Shown here in pieces: positions 1,474 through 49,512 of a DNA stretch of 64,000 nucleotides. The notes beneath the pieces were generated by a model that saw nothing but the letters and a program-made list of their open reading frames with translations, did no database searches and was not told the origin of the DNA. Position 1 is the stretch's first letter; the number at the start of each line of letters is the position of its first letter. A program made the translations under genes and the position numbers. This DNA comes from Chiloscyllium plagiosum (Eukaryota), in contig NC_057742.1 in assembly GCF_004010195.1 (NCBI RefSeq), positions 2,896,714-2,960,713 on the forward strand, written 5' to 3'.

Positions 1474-2019
1474 ACCTCGTAGGATATATATGACCACAGA
1501 TAGCATTACACAAACCATATCGGATTCTGTTATTCAAAGATGATTGGAAATTTCCTCTGAGTTTCCTCTGTCCAGCCATTGGGAAAATCTGAGGACATTC
1601 CACTGATGTGGAGAGGGAGAAGTCCTGAGACAATTCCCTGTAGGGGTAAGACATACCCCAACCAAACCAACCATGATCTGTTTTACCCCACCCCTGTTTC
1701 AACAGCAAAACAAAAATCATTGCAGGACACAAACTCCATCCTACTATCTCCCAGGGACCTCTTTAATCCCACCCAAACATCACCCCACCTCCTTACAGAT
1801 ATCCAAGTTCAGAGACAAACACTCCCCAGGGAATAAACTCCGTTCAGCAGAATGTTCCTGAGTGAGTGAGTGCAGGGTCTATAATTCAAAAGGGTAGGAT
1901 GACCAACTGTCCCAATGGGCACAGTTCCTGCTAACAGGGTTCCTGACTGTCCACCCTGGGCTTGAGCATCTCCACTGTTAATGATAAAAGGAGCAAACAG
2001 CAAAGTAAGGACAGACCTG

Positions 2020-2442
2020 AAACCAAAAGAGAAAATGCTGGAAAATCTCAGCAGGTCTGGCAGCATCTGTAAGGAGAGAAAAGAGCTGATGTTTCGAGTC
2101 TAACTGACCCTTTGTCAAAGCTAAAAAAAGGGAAGAAATAGGGAAGTAGTTTTACGAGGCTGAGAGAAGGTGAGTCATGGCCCCAGAACCAAAGGTAGTG
2201 TCACTGTCATTATCACCTGGTTATTGCTCCCTTCGCTTCTGGGGCCATGACTCACCTTCTCTCAGCCTCGTATAAATACCTCCCTATTTCTCCCATTATT
2301 TTAGCTTTGATAAAGGGTCAGTTAGACTCGAAACGTCAGCTCTTTTCTCTCCTTACAGATGCTGCCAGACCTGCTGAGATTTTCCAGCATTTTCTCTTTT
2401 GTTTTCAGATTCCAGCATCTGCAGTAATTTGCTTTTATTAAA
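2020..2442. mobile_element. Fold-back (tail-to-tail) non-autonomous PLE derivative with HHR cores
   Basis: Inverted arms ~2017-2189 and ~2237-2408; flanking direct repeat gacagacctg at 2010-2019 and 2443-2452. Confidence 0.85.
2301..2341 (+). ncRNA. Minimal type-I hammerhead ribozyme motif, U3-A8 variant
   Basis: AGCU-UUGAUAA-A-GGGUC-AGUUA-GACUC-GAAA-CGUC-AGCU: 5-bp stem II, 4-bp stem I, palindromic ACGU stem III; mirror copy on - strand at 2088-2118. Confidence 0.7.
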
Positions 2443-4532
2443 GACAGACCTGGCGTGGGGAGGAGAGGGGAACAGCCACCACTGTATCAATAGTTTACAT
2501 TAGAGACACGTCCCCTTCCCAACCTCCGGTGCTGTGTTGCAGCAACTCCAGATCCATCTCTCTGGCCATACAGGACCAAGGGCAAATCCCAATCCCACTG
2601 TGTTGGCTCCTCTCTCATCCCCCAGGGGTAAATACCACTGTGTGCCCCCCCTCCGGGGTAAATCCCACCATGTGGGTCTCTCTTGCCCCCACCCCCCAGG
2701 GTAAATCCTACTCTCCATCCCCACCCTGTGGCCCACCAGCTGTTTCTCCAGCCGCTGAATAAAGACGGATCTCAGTGTGTCCTGGTGGATGGTTCCCGCT
2801 CACTTTCACCAACCCCTATCCACCCAGGCCCCGTGAGCCTGCCCCAATCTGTCTCCCTCTTCCCGGACCCCGGGAGCCTGTCCCACCCCAGGGACGATTT
2901 TGCCTTCACCATCGTGTACACCCTGGCCCTGCCCCACTGATTCCGAGGGGGTAGTGTCCATCCCTCAAAGCCGCTGGACTTTCTCAGTGCAGGCTGTTTG
3001 ATTCAGCGCAGGCAGAGTTAACCCATCGCCGTGCTCACCCAAATGGGGAGCTTTTACCTTTCTGTAAATGGAACATTATTTCACCATTAAAGAGAATCCA
3101 TCTAAATTGGCAGCAAAGTGCTCAACAATAAAATGCTGAATATAAAAAAAAACATAGGCCAGAAACAAGGAGCCATCTGCTCCAGCTTGACAGCAGATTG
3201 CCAACTCCGTGCCAACTCTCACTAAATGTTGCAGAAAAAAACGTGGTTGAATGTAATGGCCTTTGGCAGAGCAGTGCAGGGGGGAGGGGTCGGGTGCTAG
3301 GGCTCAACAGGGAACCATACAGCAAGGTGCCTAACGTAGTGATGCTGAGCAGGCAGGGAGCAGGTACCAGTACACTGTGATACTGAGGGAGCGCTTCACT
3401 GCCACAGACTCCCCTTCACACGAACTGTTCAATGGCCACACTGACTCAGTGCAGCAGGATATTCAAACTGAACGTCTCCGAATGTGCCTCGGTTAATGTC
3501 ACGCCCTCTACAAACACGTCAGCTCTCAGAAGAGTTACTGGATCTATAATTGGAAACTAAACCTTTACGTGAATATCAACGAGAGCTGAGCAACCCCCAT
3601 TCCAAGAAGATTCCCCACAGCTTCACCCACTTTTAGCCACTTGACAACTGGTTCCAGAGATCCCCCAAGGATGTGATGCCAACACTGGGGCAAAGAGACC
3701 ACTTGGAAAGGCAGTTTCTCCAGCTGTCCGGTTGCTAACTTACCAATGTATCGCCTCCATTTGTTGTTCCTCATGACATGGTTTACCTTTGAGATGCTGA
3801 AACTGTCTTTTCTAGCTAAAGATAAGTAGCTCTCAAAACATTTGCCGCAGAGTCATATTGGTGTGTTGACATTGGCAACTCTGACACAGAAATGTTTGAA
3901 AATCTCAACATGAAAGAATCAGGTCAAACTGAGTCAGGCTGAGTTCAGTTAGGGAAGTGTAAATATGACACCGGAGTGGGTGGTGGAAGACTGCGAGTGA
4001 TGCTTGGGTCAATTCAAAGCGTTGACAATCCCTTTCTAAAGTACAAAATGTCACCAAAACGATAAACACTTCAGAGAACTGCTGGATGAACAACAGTCAC
4101 CCACACATCAGGCTGTGCTCACTCAACAATATGGGCTTTCAGTTTCTCAATACCTCAGACTTAAAAATCATCAACTTGTTTTAAAATCCCTCTGTGGCCT
4201 CACCCTTTCCTCTCGCGGTGACCTCTTTCCATCCTGACCATGCACTGAGATCTCTGCATGCTCCTCCACATCCCAGATCCATTAGCAGCCAGAAATAAAT
4301 CCTTGAAATTCTTTTCTGAAACCTCTTGGCTTTTCATTTCCAACACTTTTTTTTTTAAAAAACCACCACTTTCTCAGTCCCAATATATTTGTGAGAGGGC
4401 TTGTTTCTGTAACATCCCTGTGAAAAGCCTTGGGGTGTTTGACCGCAGATCAGGAGATGGATTTGTTTTGTTATGAACATTTACAGGTTGCAAACTGGAA
4501 GAGAATGGAGTTGAGTATTGCAGGAAAGAAAC

Positions 4533-12319: not shown

Positions 12320-13215
12320 GCTCCCAGTGCAGTACTGAAGGACTGTCACACTGTTGGAGATGCTGCTTTTTGGATGAGAGGTAAACCCAAGGTTCCACAT
12401 TCACTGTCACCTGGATGTAAGATGCAAGATCCTGTGGCACTAAATCTGAAGAAGTATAGAGGAGTTTGGATGTAGGTTTGCTCGCTGAGCTGGAAGGTTC
12501 GTTTTCAGATGTTTCGTCACCTTACTAGGTAGCATCTTCAGTGAGCCTCCAGATGAAGCACTGGTGGTATGGCCCGCTTTCTATTGATGTCTTGGGGTTT
12601 CCTGAGTCAGTGATGTCATTTCTTGGGGTGACATCATTTCCTTTGATGTCATTTCCGGTTATTTTTCTCAGGAGTCGGTAAATGGGGATCCAAGTCAATG
12701 TGTTTGTTGATAGAGTTCCAGTCGGAATGCCATGCTTCTAGGAATTCTCGTACATGTCTCTGTTTGGCGTGTCCTAGGATGGGTGTATTGTCCCAGTCGA
12801 AGTGGTGTCCTTCCTCATCCATATGTGAGGATACTAGTGAGAGTGGGTCATGTCGTTTTGTAGCTAGTTGACATTCCTGTATCCTGGTGGCTAGTTTTCT
12901 GCCTGTTTGTCCAATGTAGTGTTTGTTACAGTTGTTGCAAAGTATTTTGTAAATAACATTAGTTTTGCTTGTTGTCTGTATCAGGTCTTCAAGTTCATTA
13001 GCTGCTGTTTTAGTGTGGTAGTGGGTTTGTGGGCTACCATGGTGCCAAGGGGTCTGGAGCTGGAGTCTGAGAACCAACAGCAAAGCAAATCAGTCTGTGC
13101 TGCTCAGTGTCCCGCTGCTTCAGTCAAACTGACTGCGTTTCCAACTTTCCAACAGCAGCTACACTTCAAATCTACTCCACTGGTTGAAAAGCATTTTGGG
13201 ACATGGCAAGATCTG
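12320..13215 (+). mobile_element. Old Deu-SINE-like relic interrupted by a PLE
   Basis: cccagtgcagtactga...ctgttggagatgctgctttttggatgagaggtaaacccaagg...gatcctgtggcact resembles the Deu domain; tail resumes ~13090-13215. Confidence 0.55.
12468..13060 (-). mobile_element. Penelope-like element 3' end: GIY-YIG endonuclease remnant plus pseudo-LTR with HHR
   Basis: ORF 12649-13083(-): NVIYKILCNNCNKHYIGQTGRKLATRI...H.FDW...REFLEAWH...SIN; HHR core CUGAAGA-stem II-GAAACAUC at 12508-12541(-). Confidence 0.93.
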
Positions 13216-20217: not shown

Positions 20218-20897
20218 TCAGGGGAAATGAGGAAACTGGTGAAATCCGAGTTCATCCCTTGTGGTTGGAGGGTTCCTAGGCGGAAGATGAGGCGTTCTTC
20301 CTCCAACTGTCGTTTTGTTGTGGTCTGACGATGGAGGAGTCCAAAGACCTGCATATCCTTGGTGGAGTGGGAGGGGGAATTGAAATGTTGAGCTACAGGG
20401 TGGTTGGGTTGGTTGGTCCGGGTGTCCCAGAGGTGTTCTCTGAAACGCTCCGCAAGTAGCCGGCCTGTCTCCCCAATATAGAGGAGGCCACATCGGGTGC
20501 AGAGTATGCAATAGATGATGTGTGTGGAGGTGCAGGTGAATCTGTGGCGGATATGGGAGTTTCCTTTGGGGCCTTGGAGGGAGGTGAGGGGGGAGGTGTG
20601 GGCGCAAGTCTTGCACCTCCTGCGGTTGCAGGGGAAGGTGCCGGGAGTGGAGGTTGGGTTGGTGGGGGTGTGGATCTGACGAGGGTCACGGAGGGAGTGG
20701 TCTTTACGGAATGCTGATAGGGGAGGGGAGGGAAATATATCCTTGGTGGTGGGGTCCGTTTGGAGGTAGCGGAAATGACGGCGGATGATGCGCTGTATGT
20801 GGAGATTGGTGGGGTGGTAGGTGAGGACCAGTGGGGTTCTGTCCTGGTGGCGGTTGGAGGGGCGGGGCTCAAGGGCGGAGGAGCGGGAAGTGGAAGT
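20218..20897 (-). mobile_element. Penelope-like element fragment (second family), GIY-YIG endonuclease domain
   Basis: Manual - strand translation: RFTCTSTHIIYCILCTRCGLLYIGETGRLLAERFREHL...PVAQHFN...EERLIFRLGTLQPQGMN; upstream PLVLTYHP motif. Confidence 0.93.
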
Positions 20898-22069: not shown

Positions 22070-22379
22070 GGTCAGAAGTCACACGACACCAGGTTATCCA
22101 ACAGCTTTTATTGAAATCACAAGCTTTCGGAGCGTTGTCCTTTCGGGTGTAGGTTTGCTCGCTGAGCTGTCGGTTTGATATCCAGACGTTTCATTACCTG
22201 GCTCAGTAACATCATCAGTGGTGACCTCCAAGTGAAGCACCTGTCCTTTCGTCAGGTGCACTTCACCAGGAGCAGCGCTCTGAAAACTTGTGATTTCAAG
22301 TGAACCTGTTGGACCATAACCGGGTGCTGTTTGACTTTTGACCTTGTCCACCCAAGTTCAACACCAGCGCCTCCACATC
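22070..22379. mobile_element. Fold-back PLE derivative (family C) containing a nested PLE end
   Basis: TSD aaatcagagaaa at 22058-22069 and 22380-22391; inverted arms; HHR-type core ...GCUCC-GAAA-GCUU. Confidence 0.8.
22146..22241 (-). mobile_element. 96-bp PLE 3' end with intact HHR core
   Basis: CUGAUGA-U-GUUAC...GUAAU-GAAACGUC at 22185-22218(-); TSD tgtcctttcg at 22136-22145 and 22242-22251; same family as 12468. Confidence 0.82.
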
Positions 22380-34871: not shown

Positions 34872-36460
34872 CAAAGTTTGTGCGAAGATTTGTAGCTCGG
34901 GTGCTCGTTGTTGTGGTTCTGTTCGCCGAGCTGGAAGTTTTTGTTGCAAACGTTTCATCCCCTGGCTAGGCGACATCATCAGTGCTTGGGAGCCTCCTGC
35001 GAAGCGCTTCTTTGATGTTTCCTCCGGTGTTTATAGTGGTCTGTCCCTGCCACTTCCGGTTGTCGAAGCGCTTCGCAAGAGGCTCCCAAGCACTGATGAT
35101 GTCGCCCAGCCAGGGGACGAAACGTTTGCAACAAAAACTTCCACCTCGGCGAACAGAACCACANNNNNNNNNNNNNNNNNNNNNNNNNNNNNNNNNNNNN
35201 NNNNNNNNNNNNNNNNNNNNNNNNNNNNNNNNNNNNNNNNNNNNNNNNNNNNNNNNNNNNNNNNNNNNNNNNNNNNNNNNNNNNNNNNNNNNNNNNNNNN
35301 NNNNNNNNNNNNNNNNNNNNNNNNNNNNNNNNNNNNNNNNNNNNNNNNNNNNNNNNNNNNNNNNNNNNNNNNNNNNNNNNNNNNNNNNNNNNNNNNNNNN
35401 NNNNNNNNNNNNNNNNNNNNNNNNNNNNNNNNNNNNNNNNNNNNNNNNNNNNNNNNNNNNNNNNNNNNNNNNNNNNNNNNNNNNNNNNNNNNNNNNNNNN
35501 NNNNNNNNNNNNNNNNNNNNNNNNNNNNNNNNNNNNNNNNNNNNNNNNNNNNNNNNNNNNNNNNNNNNNNNNNNNNNNNNNNNNNNNNNNNNNNNNNNNN
35601 NNNNNNNNNNNNNNNNNNNNNNNNNNNNNNNNNNNNNNNNNNNNNNNNNNNNNNNNNNNNNNNNNNNNNNNNNNNNNNNNNNNNNNNNNNNNNNNNNNNN
35701 NNNNNNNNNNNNNNNNNNNNNNNNNNNNNNNNNNNNNNNNNNNNNNNNNNNNNNNNNNNNNNNNNNNNNNNNNNNNNNNNNNNNNNNNNNNNNNNNNNNN
35801 NNNNNNNNNNNNNNNNNNNNNNNNNNNNNNNNNNNNNNNNNNNNNNNNNNNNNNNNNNNNNNNNNNNNNNNNNNNNNNNNNNNNNNNNNNNNNNNNNNNN
35901 NNNNNNNNNNNNNNNNNNNNNNNNNNNNNNNNNNNNNNNNNNNNNNNNNNNNNNNNNNNNNNNNNNNNNNNNNNNNNNNNNNNNNNNNNNNNNNNNNNNN
36001 NNNNNNNNNNNNNNNNNNNNNNNNNNNNNNNNNNNAACACCGGAGGAAACATCAATGAAGCGCTTCGCAGGAGGCTCCCAAGCACTGATGCTGTCGCCTA
36101 GCCAGGGGACGAAACGTTTGCAACAAAAACTTCCAGCTCGGCGAACAGAACCACAACATACCCCTTGTTTCATTAGAGTCAGTCTCGGTACCAGAAACTT
36201 GGCTGCTCATGCTACATTCCCCTGAGAGTTCATCCACAAACTCCATCAACAAACACATCGACCTGGACCCAATATACCAACCACTACAGCGGACAGCTGA
36301 AACTGACAACCGGAAGCGGCAGGGACAGACCACTATAAACACCGGAGGAAACATCAAAGAAGCGCTTCGCAGGAGGCTCCCAAGCACTGATGATATCGCC
36401 TAGCCAGGGGACGAAACGTTTGTAACAAAAACTTCCAGCTCGGCGAACAGAACCACAACA
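34872..36460. mobile_element. Young PLE pseudo-LTR array (one inverted plus at least three direct copies, each with an HHR), spans gap
   Basis: Near-identical CpG-rich copies; endonuclease C-terminus STNSINKHIDLDPIYQPL at ~36230; TSD atta(c/t)cattact at 34860-34871 and 36461-36472. Confidence 0.9.
35090..35129 (+). ncRNA. Minimal type-I hammerhead ribozyme motif
   Basis: GCA-CUGAUGA-U-GUCGCC...GGGGAC-GAAA-CGUU-UGC; sister cores at 34949-34982(-), 36085-36118(+, A9 mutated to C), 36387-36420(+). Confidence 0.75.
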
Positions 36461-38224: not shown

Positions 38225-38453
38225 AAACGAAAGAATTGCAGATGCTATAAATCAGAAACAAAAACACAAATTGCTGGAAGGACTCAGCAGGTCTGGCAGC
38301 ATCCGTGGAGAGAAAGCCTAGTGAATGTTTCAGGTCTAGTCAGCCTTTTTCAGAACAGTACTGAAGAAGGGTCCCTGGACCCGAAACATTAATTCTGATT
38401 TCTCTCCACAGGTGCTGCCAGACCTGCTGAGTTTTTCCAGCAATTTCTGATTT
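38225..38453. mobile_element. Fold-back PLE derivative with HHR core
   Basis: Inverted arms; CUGAAGA-A-GGGUC-CCUG-GACCC-GAAACAUU at 38361-38390. Confidence 0.8.
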
Positions 38454-49293: not shown

Positions 49294-49512
49294 GGAGAAA
49301 GTGAGGTCTGCAGATGCTGGAGATCAAAGTTGAAACTTTATTGCTGGAACAGCATAGCAGGTCAGGCAGCATCCAGGGAACAGGAGATTCGACGTTTCGG
49401 GCACAGGCCGAAGAAGGGTTCCTGAAGAAGGGCCTGTGCCCGAAACGTCGAATCTCCTGTTCCCTGGATGCTGCCTGACCTGCTGTGCTGTTCCAGCAAT
49501 AAAGTTTCAACC
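49294..49512. mobile_element. Young fold-back PLE derivative
   Basis: 14-bp TSD taaatagacaaaaa at 49280-49293 and 49513-49526; ~80-bp near-perfect inverted arms 49329-49409 / 49431-49511. Confidence 0.92.
49416..49455 (+). ncRNA. Minimal type-I hammerhead ribozyme motif, intact canonical core
   Basis: GGGUUC-CUGAAGA-A-GGGC-CUGU-GCCC-GAAA-CGUC-GAAUCU: 6-bp stem I (two G-U pairs), 4-bp stem II, GUC triplet. Confidence 0.82.

Follow-up and report, generated by a model that had tools for sequence, protein, structure and literature searches.

A hammerhead ribozyme family with an exchanged 3-8 pair in a likely Neptune-type Penelope-like retrotransposon of Chiloscyllium plagiosum

Minimal hammerhead ribozymes in which a U-A pair takes the place of the usual C-G pair between positions 3 and 8 are known from the Cercyon Penelope-like elements (PLEs) of Schistosoma mansoni, with about 1,300 hits, and the Schistosoma motif is reported to have a low activity, seen only as a dimer (Cervera and de la Pena 2014, PMC4209133). 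Natural U3-A8 hammerheads that are active in vitro were also described by Perreault et al. (2011, PMC3088659), and the two papers together bear out the statement, made in an earlier note on the DNA analysed here, that such variants exist in nature. The U3-A8 variant itself is thus already published; relative to these two sources, the host and the family are new. In fact, all 13 chordate rows in the supplementary alignment of PMC4209133 are C3-G8, none of them from a shark, and the literature searched contained no shark or vertebrate U3-A8 hammerhead, although Lunse 2017, outside that coverage, may list one. For a PLE of the anole, protein-assisted cleavage is reported, and uncut RNA is its main insertion substrate (Frangieh et al. 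2024, PMC11167929). Adjoining literature is found in bioRxiv 10.64898/2026.07.22.740005, PMC6765202, PMC7151607, PMC6155905 and PMC2920678.

The motif described here lies in a window of 64,000 nucleotides from the genome of C. plagiosum (Table 1). It resembles the Cercyon motif (PMC4209133) in being a minimal type I hammerhead located in a pLTR, with a U3-A8 pair, an extra base between A9 and position 10.1, a palindromic 15.2-16.2 without stem III, and inverted pairs 100-700 bp apart; the row Schistosoma_mansoni(3) of the same source carries the same UUGAUAAA core as the right arm in the window. In contrast to Cercyon, the host is a vertebrate and the stems differ, and the copy boundaries, which in the text of PMC4209133 are not mapped to the ribozyme, could be mapped to it here. 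The hammerheads of PMC3088659 show the same covariation, but the PLE family described here, with its thousands of copies, has the pair fixed. With Poseidon PAc of Anolis carolinensis (PMC11167929) the family shares a hammerhead at the junction of pLTR and ORF, and in that element there are likewise two internal start sites of reverse transcription which define a tail, uncut RNA being the main template. Poseidon PAc has, however, a C3-G8 core and an ORF that starts inside the ribozyme, whereas the likely ATG of the family lies about 160 nt downstream, and Poseidon lacks the Cys linker that the family possesses. Taking all the evidence together, we regard it as probable that the locus is an inverted, target-duplicated PLE insertion, likely of the Neptune clade, and that the U3-A8 hammerhead of its family was selected in the master element for slow self-cleavage, as a dimer or helped by protein.

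Table 1. Positions of the features of the insertion within the window.
Feature	Position	Strand	Remarks
Left target-site duplication	2006..2019	+	14 bp; 13 of 14 bases equal 2439-2452; last 3 bases also match the element end
Left arm: inverted, tail-less, 5'-truncated pLTR copy	2017..2198	-	Terminates at the first 3' end site of the family, which has two
Left minimal hammerhead	2084..2122	-	U3 2118, A8 2113, C17 2088; C at position 7
Right arm: tailed, 5'-truncated pLTR copy	2204..2438	+	5' limit approximate
TATA-like box TATAAATA	2271..2278	+	32 nt upstream of the first base of stem I; putative promoter role
Right minimal type I hammerhead, U3-A8	2303..2341	+	Predicted cut after C2337
Right-arm stem I	2303-2306/2338-2341	+	AGCU/AGCU
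Right-arm stem II	2315-2319/2325-2329	+	GGGUC/GACUC
Right-arm core positions	U3 2307, N7 2311 (U), A8 2312, A9 2313, extra A 2314	+	
Right-arm 3' core	GAAA after stem II, G12 2330; palindrome ACGU 2333-2336; C17 2337	+	
First base of stem I	2303..2303	+	Commonest 5' boundary among family copies; likely transcription start
PLE tail	2400..2438	+	Spans the two 3' end sites, about 30 nt apart; approximate limits
Right target-site duplication	2439..2452	+	

The fold-back at the locus, formed by 182-bp inverted arms (2017-2198 and 2227-2408, 93% complementary), had been called a mobile element by the earlier note, but it is an ordinary inverted insertion of a Neptune-type PLE and not a separate mobile unit. 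The long copies of the family carry, upstream on the same strand, a reverse transcriptase (RT) with a YIDD motif (Pfam RVT_1, E 6e-4, under the curated cut-off), a Cys linker, and, at the C terminus, a GIY-YIG nuclease with a CxxC between GIY and YIG (Pfam GIY-YIG, E 0.0086, also under the curated cut-off). The linker between RT and nuclease reads C-x4-C-x2-C, of the CX2-5CxxC type, in the two long copies L031 and L087. A layout of RT, linker and GIY-YIG belongs to Neptune or Nematis (Craig et al. 2021, PMC8557442), and as described there the Neptune clade shares with the family the CX2-5CxxC linker after the RT followed by a GIY-YIG with an internal CxxC, as well as 5' truncation, partial tandems, inverted copies and a tail; Nematis also has the linker. 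Judging by these domain motifs and Pfam matches, the element is likely an EN+ PLE of the clade Neptune. The 3' ends of copies cluster at +90 to +101 and at or beyond +123 from U3, the reference copy ending at +123, and this tail with two end sites matches the optional tail of 30-40 bp known from PLEs (PMC11167929, PMC3846280); in seven distinct places the tail continues into the ORF of a next unit, the likely ATG lying some 160 nt past U3. Elsewhere in the window, at 20370-20642 on the minus strand, there is a fragment of another PLE nuclease, 53% identical to that of the U3-A8 family.

A pLTR with tail, inverted copies and target duplication were all found in the family, and inverted pLTRs flanked by a target duplication are the standard product of PLEs; rotifer PLEs show the same tailed and tail-less inverted structure with target duplication as the insert in the window (PMC3846280). 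A self-mobile, MITE-like fold-back element that would use its two ribozymes, as the wording of the earlier note implied, could account for the inverted arms and for an upstream inverted arm in 25 of 60 sampled copies. Nevertheless, loci vary in the lengths of their arms and in their junctions, only one of the two ends is tailed, the two ribozymes lie on opposite strands with a stem II pairing probability of 0 in read-through RNA, and the arrangement is the one expected of a PLE (PMC3846280), so that such an element is extremely improbable. A MITE or fold-back DNA transposon was rejected on the same variation of arms and junctions and on the asymmetric ends. The family also differs from a non-LTR retrozyme, for it has an ORF and the copies listed are dispersed singles or inverted pairs.

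The earlier note had placed a hammerhead core in both arms, with U3 and A8 corresponding column for column to C3 and G8 elsewhere, and the alignment agrees: U/C and A/G share columns when both arms are aligned with the C3-G8 cores at 49422, 38361 and 51979. The remaining core positions of the U3-A8 motif are canonical and its 3-8 pair is Watson-Crick. The extra base A2314 between A9 and 10.1 is present, followed by the G10.1-C11.1 pair (G2315-C2329), and the right arm and the majority of the family have the palindromic 15.2-16.2 (ACGU) without stem III as well as an NUH triplet, GUC; core positions, extra A, G10.1-C11.1 and palindrome are all intact in the family majority. Stem I, which the earlier note did not contain, is itself a palindrome, AGCU/AGCU. 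As the note had anticipated, a search for CUGANGA misses this core. An Rfam scan of the window with E up to 1 matched no hammerhead model, including at the C3-G8 cores, and returned only miRNA-like hairpin matches under the gathering score; the Rfam hammerhead models do not cover the minimal form. A search of PDB sequences gave no match.

An RNA that begins at 2303 is predicted to form both stem I and stem II, with pair probabilities of 0.55-0.87 and 0.95, respectively, and a stability not above that of shuffled sequences (z -1.1 to -1.4). The 4-bp dimer helix is weak (-3.1 kcal/mol), and the cofold minimum differs from the hammerhead dimer. RNA of the family may cleave itself, as a dimer or with protein help. 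In a read-through RNA spanning both arms the predicted pairing of stem II is lost altogether, and the fold-back RNA was therefore rejected as the active ribozyme. In the left arm the ACGU palindrome is broken, A standing at 2090 in place of G16.2. Over 2227-2430 the right arm has 94-96% identity with its best other copies in the genome. With a mutated left arm, and a ribozyme that read-through RNA hides within a long hairpin, the copy at this locus is probably dead and decaying. Downstream of the right ribozyme, at 2342-2410, two pyrimidine tracts ending in CAG resemble splice acceptors and lie in the 5' leader.

Exact matches were sought genome-wide to a pattern of the family in which positions 3, 7 and 8 were free to vary, with its reversed form as control. 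It gave 676 matches against 0 in the reversed control, and the core motif is therefore not a chance occurrence. U3-A8 was present in 659 of the 676 and C3-G8 in none; four had a base other than U at position 3 (three C3-A8, one G3-A8) and 13 a base other than A at position 8 (six G, three C, four U). Copies picked irrespective of the core gave the same result, U3 being found in 44 and A8 in 43 of 45. U3-A8 is thus the state of the family and not, as the earlier note had put forward for refutation, a chance double mutant copied by the inversion. The family comprises about 3,900 copies, going by the 3,918 exact genomic matches to the 23-mer immediately past the cut site. In contigs from four sequencing runs, which bore four organism labels, any other letter at positions 3 or 8 stayed under 3%, in a comparison where the U3-A8 reference favours like copies.

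A general U3-A8 pattern had 1,553 genomic matches (control 3), and nearly all of the 100 matches listed belong to this family. The same pattern in C3-G8 form had 98,898 exact matches; both patterns require two G after the extra A, and other families may be missed by them. This number is about ten times the 9,000 hammerheads reported in Xenopus by a different search method (PMC4209133), and about 99,000 canonical cores in one genome would be a large resource for mapping capped and cut ends. With C3 placed on the stem II of the family, 113 matches were obtained, and C3-A8 made up 85 of the 100 listed. These do not form an intermediate subfamily: all 26 family copies examined lack an upstream pLTR, in about 20 of them the C is supplied by the junction with the flank or with an inverted arm, and the five which read AGCT-CTGA, true C3-A8, are near the neutral rate. 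Likewise, U3-G8 was rejected as an intermediate subfamily, as it occurs in 6 of the 676 matches, the four seen in context are ordinary long copies, and back-mutation suffices. A full C3-G8 core on the family stem II was found in three copies, one at a junction with another element and two as one arm of an inverted pair. In the latter, at loci L229 and L230, one arm is U3-A8 and the other has a full C3-U7-G8 core with the same family stem II, which suggests either a template switch to the RNA of a related family or a rare ancestral subfamily.

Of the C3-G8 families sampled, the nearest shows 74% identity over core and tail; stem I is the same, stem II is nearly so, and 28 of its 31 cores are C3-G8. 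The tree joining it to the U3-A8 family is weakly supported (0.68). As the other related families sampled are C3-G8 too, U3-A8 is, from these sequence comparisons, likely the derived state. All copies descend from one master lineage, so the swap counts as one compensatory event and not as hundreds. A possible wobble intermediate, with U3 and G8, is seen in the PLE hammerhead listed as Saccoglossus_kowalevskii(1) in the supplement of PMC4209133. The stem I pairs also vary between families (AGCU/AGCU, AUUC/GAAU, AGUU/AACU). Among inserted copies, non-CpG change amounts to 2.0% in the core (10/495) and 1.6% in stems and flank (17/1,035), CpG positions are changed in 23% of copies, about 14-fold faster than other sites, and 5 of the 45 copies picked irrespective of the core are fully intact. 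Inserted copies decay neutrally and there is no selection on them.

In the master element, selection for the 3-8 pair is likely, because just two core positions have changed and together they re-form a Watson-Crick pair, the stem I pairs covary from family to family and the same exchange recurs in PLEs of Schistosoma. The two mutations might instead have arisen by chance, in a master copy that no longer depended on its ribozyme, with the family spreading all the same; the swap is indeed a single event, and a C7 beside the ancestral G8 would have formed a CpG, from which A8 is easily reached. However, two random changes among 13 conserved sites would produce such a result with odds of about 1 in 100 or less, by a rough estimate, the two together restore the pair, and the pair arose a second time in Schistosoma, which leaves a chance origin very unlikely. 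The earlier note had taken the covariation to show selection for self-cleavage; the part concerning the pair is likely to hold, but the event is single, inserted copies are neutral, and selection for cleavage specifically is something that we infer. That the 3-8 pair has been exchanged and yet kept in a second PLE lineage speaks for selection of the active fold in PLE hammerheads.

The copies of the family also allowed the 5' boundary of insertion to be mapped. The sample consisted of 60 of the first 70 matches along contig C1, leaving aside one copy of a related family, six from loci already fetched (three of them C3-A8) and three second arms; it required an intact core, and starts inside the core are unseen in it. 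The 5' start coincides exactly with the first base of stem I in 25 of the 60 and falls within -10 to +1 of U3 in 51, the other 9 starting further upstream. Of 64 copies in whose choice the core played no part, stem I is reached in 45, the core is kept but stem I is missing in 12, and 7 fall into neither group. The canonical families were sampled by 40 of their first 44 listed copies, of which 21 show the same boundary, having at most 9 upstream bases in common with any other, and in three of four sequencing runs the start of stem I is the commonest place of loose ends, being tied in the fourth. Starts at the cleavage site are rare: at both of the positions tested before the cut site, 19 of the 3,918 copies depart from the family, nine of these being shifted or mutated cores and none a clean core deletion, so that possible starts at the cleavage site number about 10 of 3,918 (about 18 after correction, 0.5%). 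Upstream of the boundary, 40 family copies have the TATAAATA box, which in 39 of them starts at -31 to -34. In three related families an AT-rich box at -30 to -33 precedes bases resembling the initiator consensus, the boxes having been picked after inspection and two of them, TTATCT, being poor TATA matches.

As copies start at stem I and rarely at the cleavage site, the ribozyme likely forms the 5' end of the RNA, and the templates that were integrated would have been uncut or rejoined. In single-cell polyA RNA, one run gave 332 reads, about 30-fold depth over the core and no peak of starts or ends, and in a second run none aligned. TATA and initiator have been noted in the rotifer pLTR (PMC3846280), whereas Penelope of D. 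virilis, with a TATA-less promoter, a start upstream of an intron and the 3' end of that intron at helix I, counts against a TATA-driven start at stem I (PMC2377424, PMC4209133). No paper in the literature searched ties a start site to helix I, although Lunse 2017, outside that coverage, may do so.

The sharp 5' boundary could also be a mark of RNA processing or integration and not of transcription start, through a splice acceptor UUUUUAG|CU before the core or through resolution of cDNA at the AGCT palindrome. A pyrimidine tract and an AG do precede the core, the D. virilis intron ends at helix I (PMC4209133), and 15 of the 60 copies start at -3 to +1. Nevertheless, the AG is part of the insert, and lying directly against it, with no shared upstream exon, is the target duplication, which scored at least 9 in 19 of 60 copies (control 3/60) and abuts -4/-3 in 7; the same boundary occurs in families with a non-palindromic stem I (AUUC), and an AT-rich box stands at -30 to -33 in four families. 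For these reasons we consider a processing or integration mark doubtful, and continue with a start of the RNA at stem I. Six of the 25 inverted copies in the sample (loci L131, L134, L137, L145, L146 and L154) are perfect palindromes centred on the AGCT of stem I, as if a cDNA end had self-annealed there. At five further loci (L072, L073, L074, L089 and L242), ORF fragments are fused directly to a mini-copy beginning at stem I, which suggests that the RT jumps from the 5' end of the RNA to internal sites and so builds partial tandems.

Based on these boundaries and on the behaviour of the anole element, we hypothesize that the TATA-like box in the 3' end of one unit would start the RNA of the next unit at stem I. 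Reverse transcription would begin within the RNA at the tail sites, as shown for the anole PLE (PMC11167929), and would proceed to the 5' end of the RNA, giving mini-copies of 100-130 bp that include an uncut ribozyme; read-through RNA would give longer copies such as that in the window. Cleavage may be confined to a minority of the RNAs or come at a later step, either trimming tandem RNA to unit length or limiting expression, and would be slow, needing a dimer or protein (PMC4209133, PMC11167929), and not directed at the usual template. More tentatively, at somewhat less than even probability, the hammerhead would be the very 5' end of a capped RNA made from the TATA-like box 32 nt upstream, uncut RNAs would be the ones inserted, and the ribozyme would serve as a switch for self-decapping or unit length, not as a maker of templates, the U3-A8 family being the first vertebrate lineage with the 3-8 pair swapped and kept. 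If so, the family would be a natural control for such a role. The boundary data, with starts at the first base of the ribozyme and almost never at the cut site, agree with one in vitro study.

The same data bear on whether the motif is kept merely as a folded RNA shape or a sequence signal (a protein-binding site, a start-site element or a palindrome priming the second strand), with cleavage incidental or lost. Starts at the cut site are as scarce as noted above, mutating the ribozyme of the anole PLE did not affect its insertion in vitro, and among RNA-seq reads none ended at its cut site (PMC11167929), PLE clades that lack hammerheads thrive (PMC8557442), and the perfect AGCT-centred palindromes would fit a priming role. 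On the other hand, the 3-8 pair is part of the active fold, every other catalytic position is retained and U3-A8 cores do cleave in vitro (PMC3088659); retention for shape or signal alone thus appears improbable, and we favour a hammerhead kept for slow cleavage.

Other hammerhead-like sequences are present in the window. At 38324-38390 and 49340-49500, C3-G8-type mini-copies form inverted pairs whose junction is at or near stem I, and the inverted partner of the 38361 core (38324-38353, minus strand) reads C3-A8 and is a decayed copy. A different hammerhead-like family, with a longer stem II, is found at 34949-35126, 36387-36420, 22185-22218 (minus strand) and 12508-12541 (minus strand), the first of these being an inverted pair.
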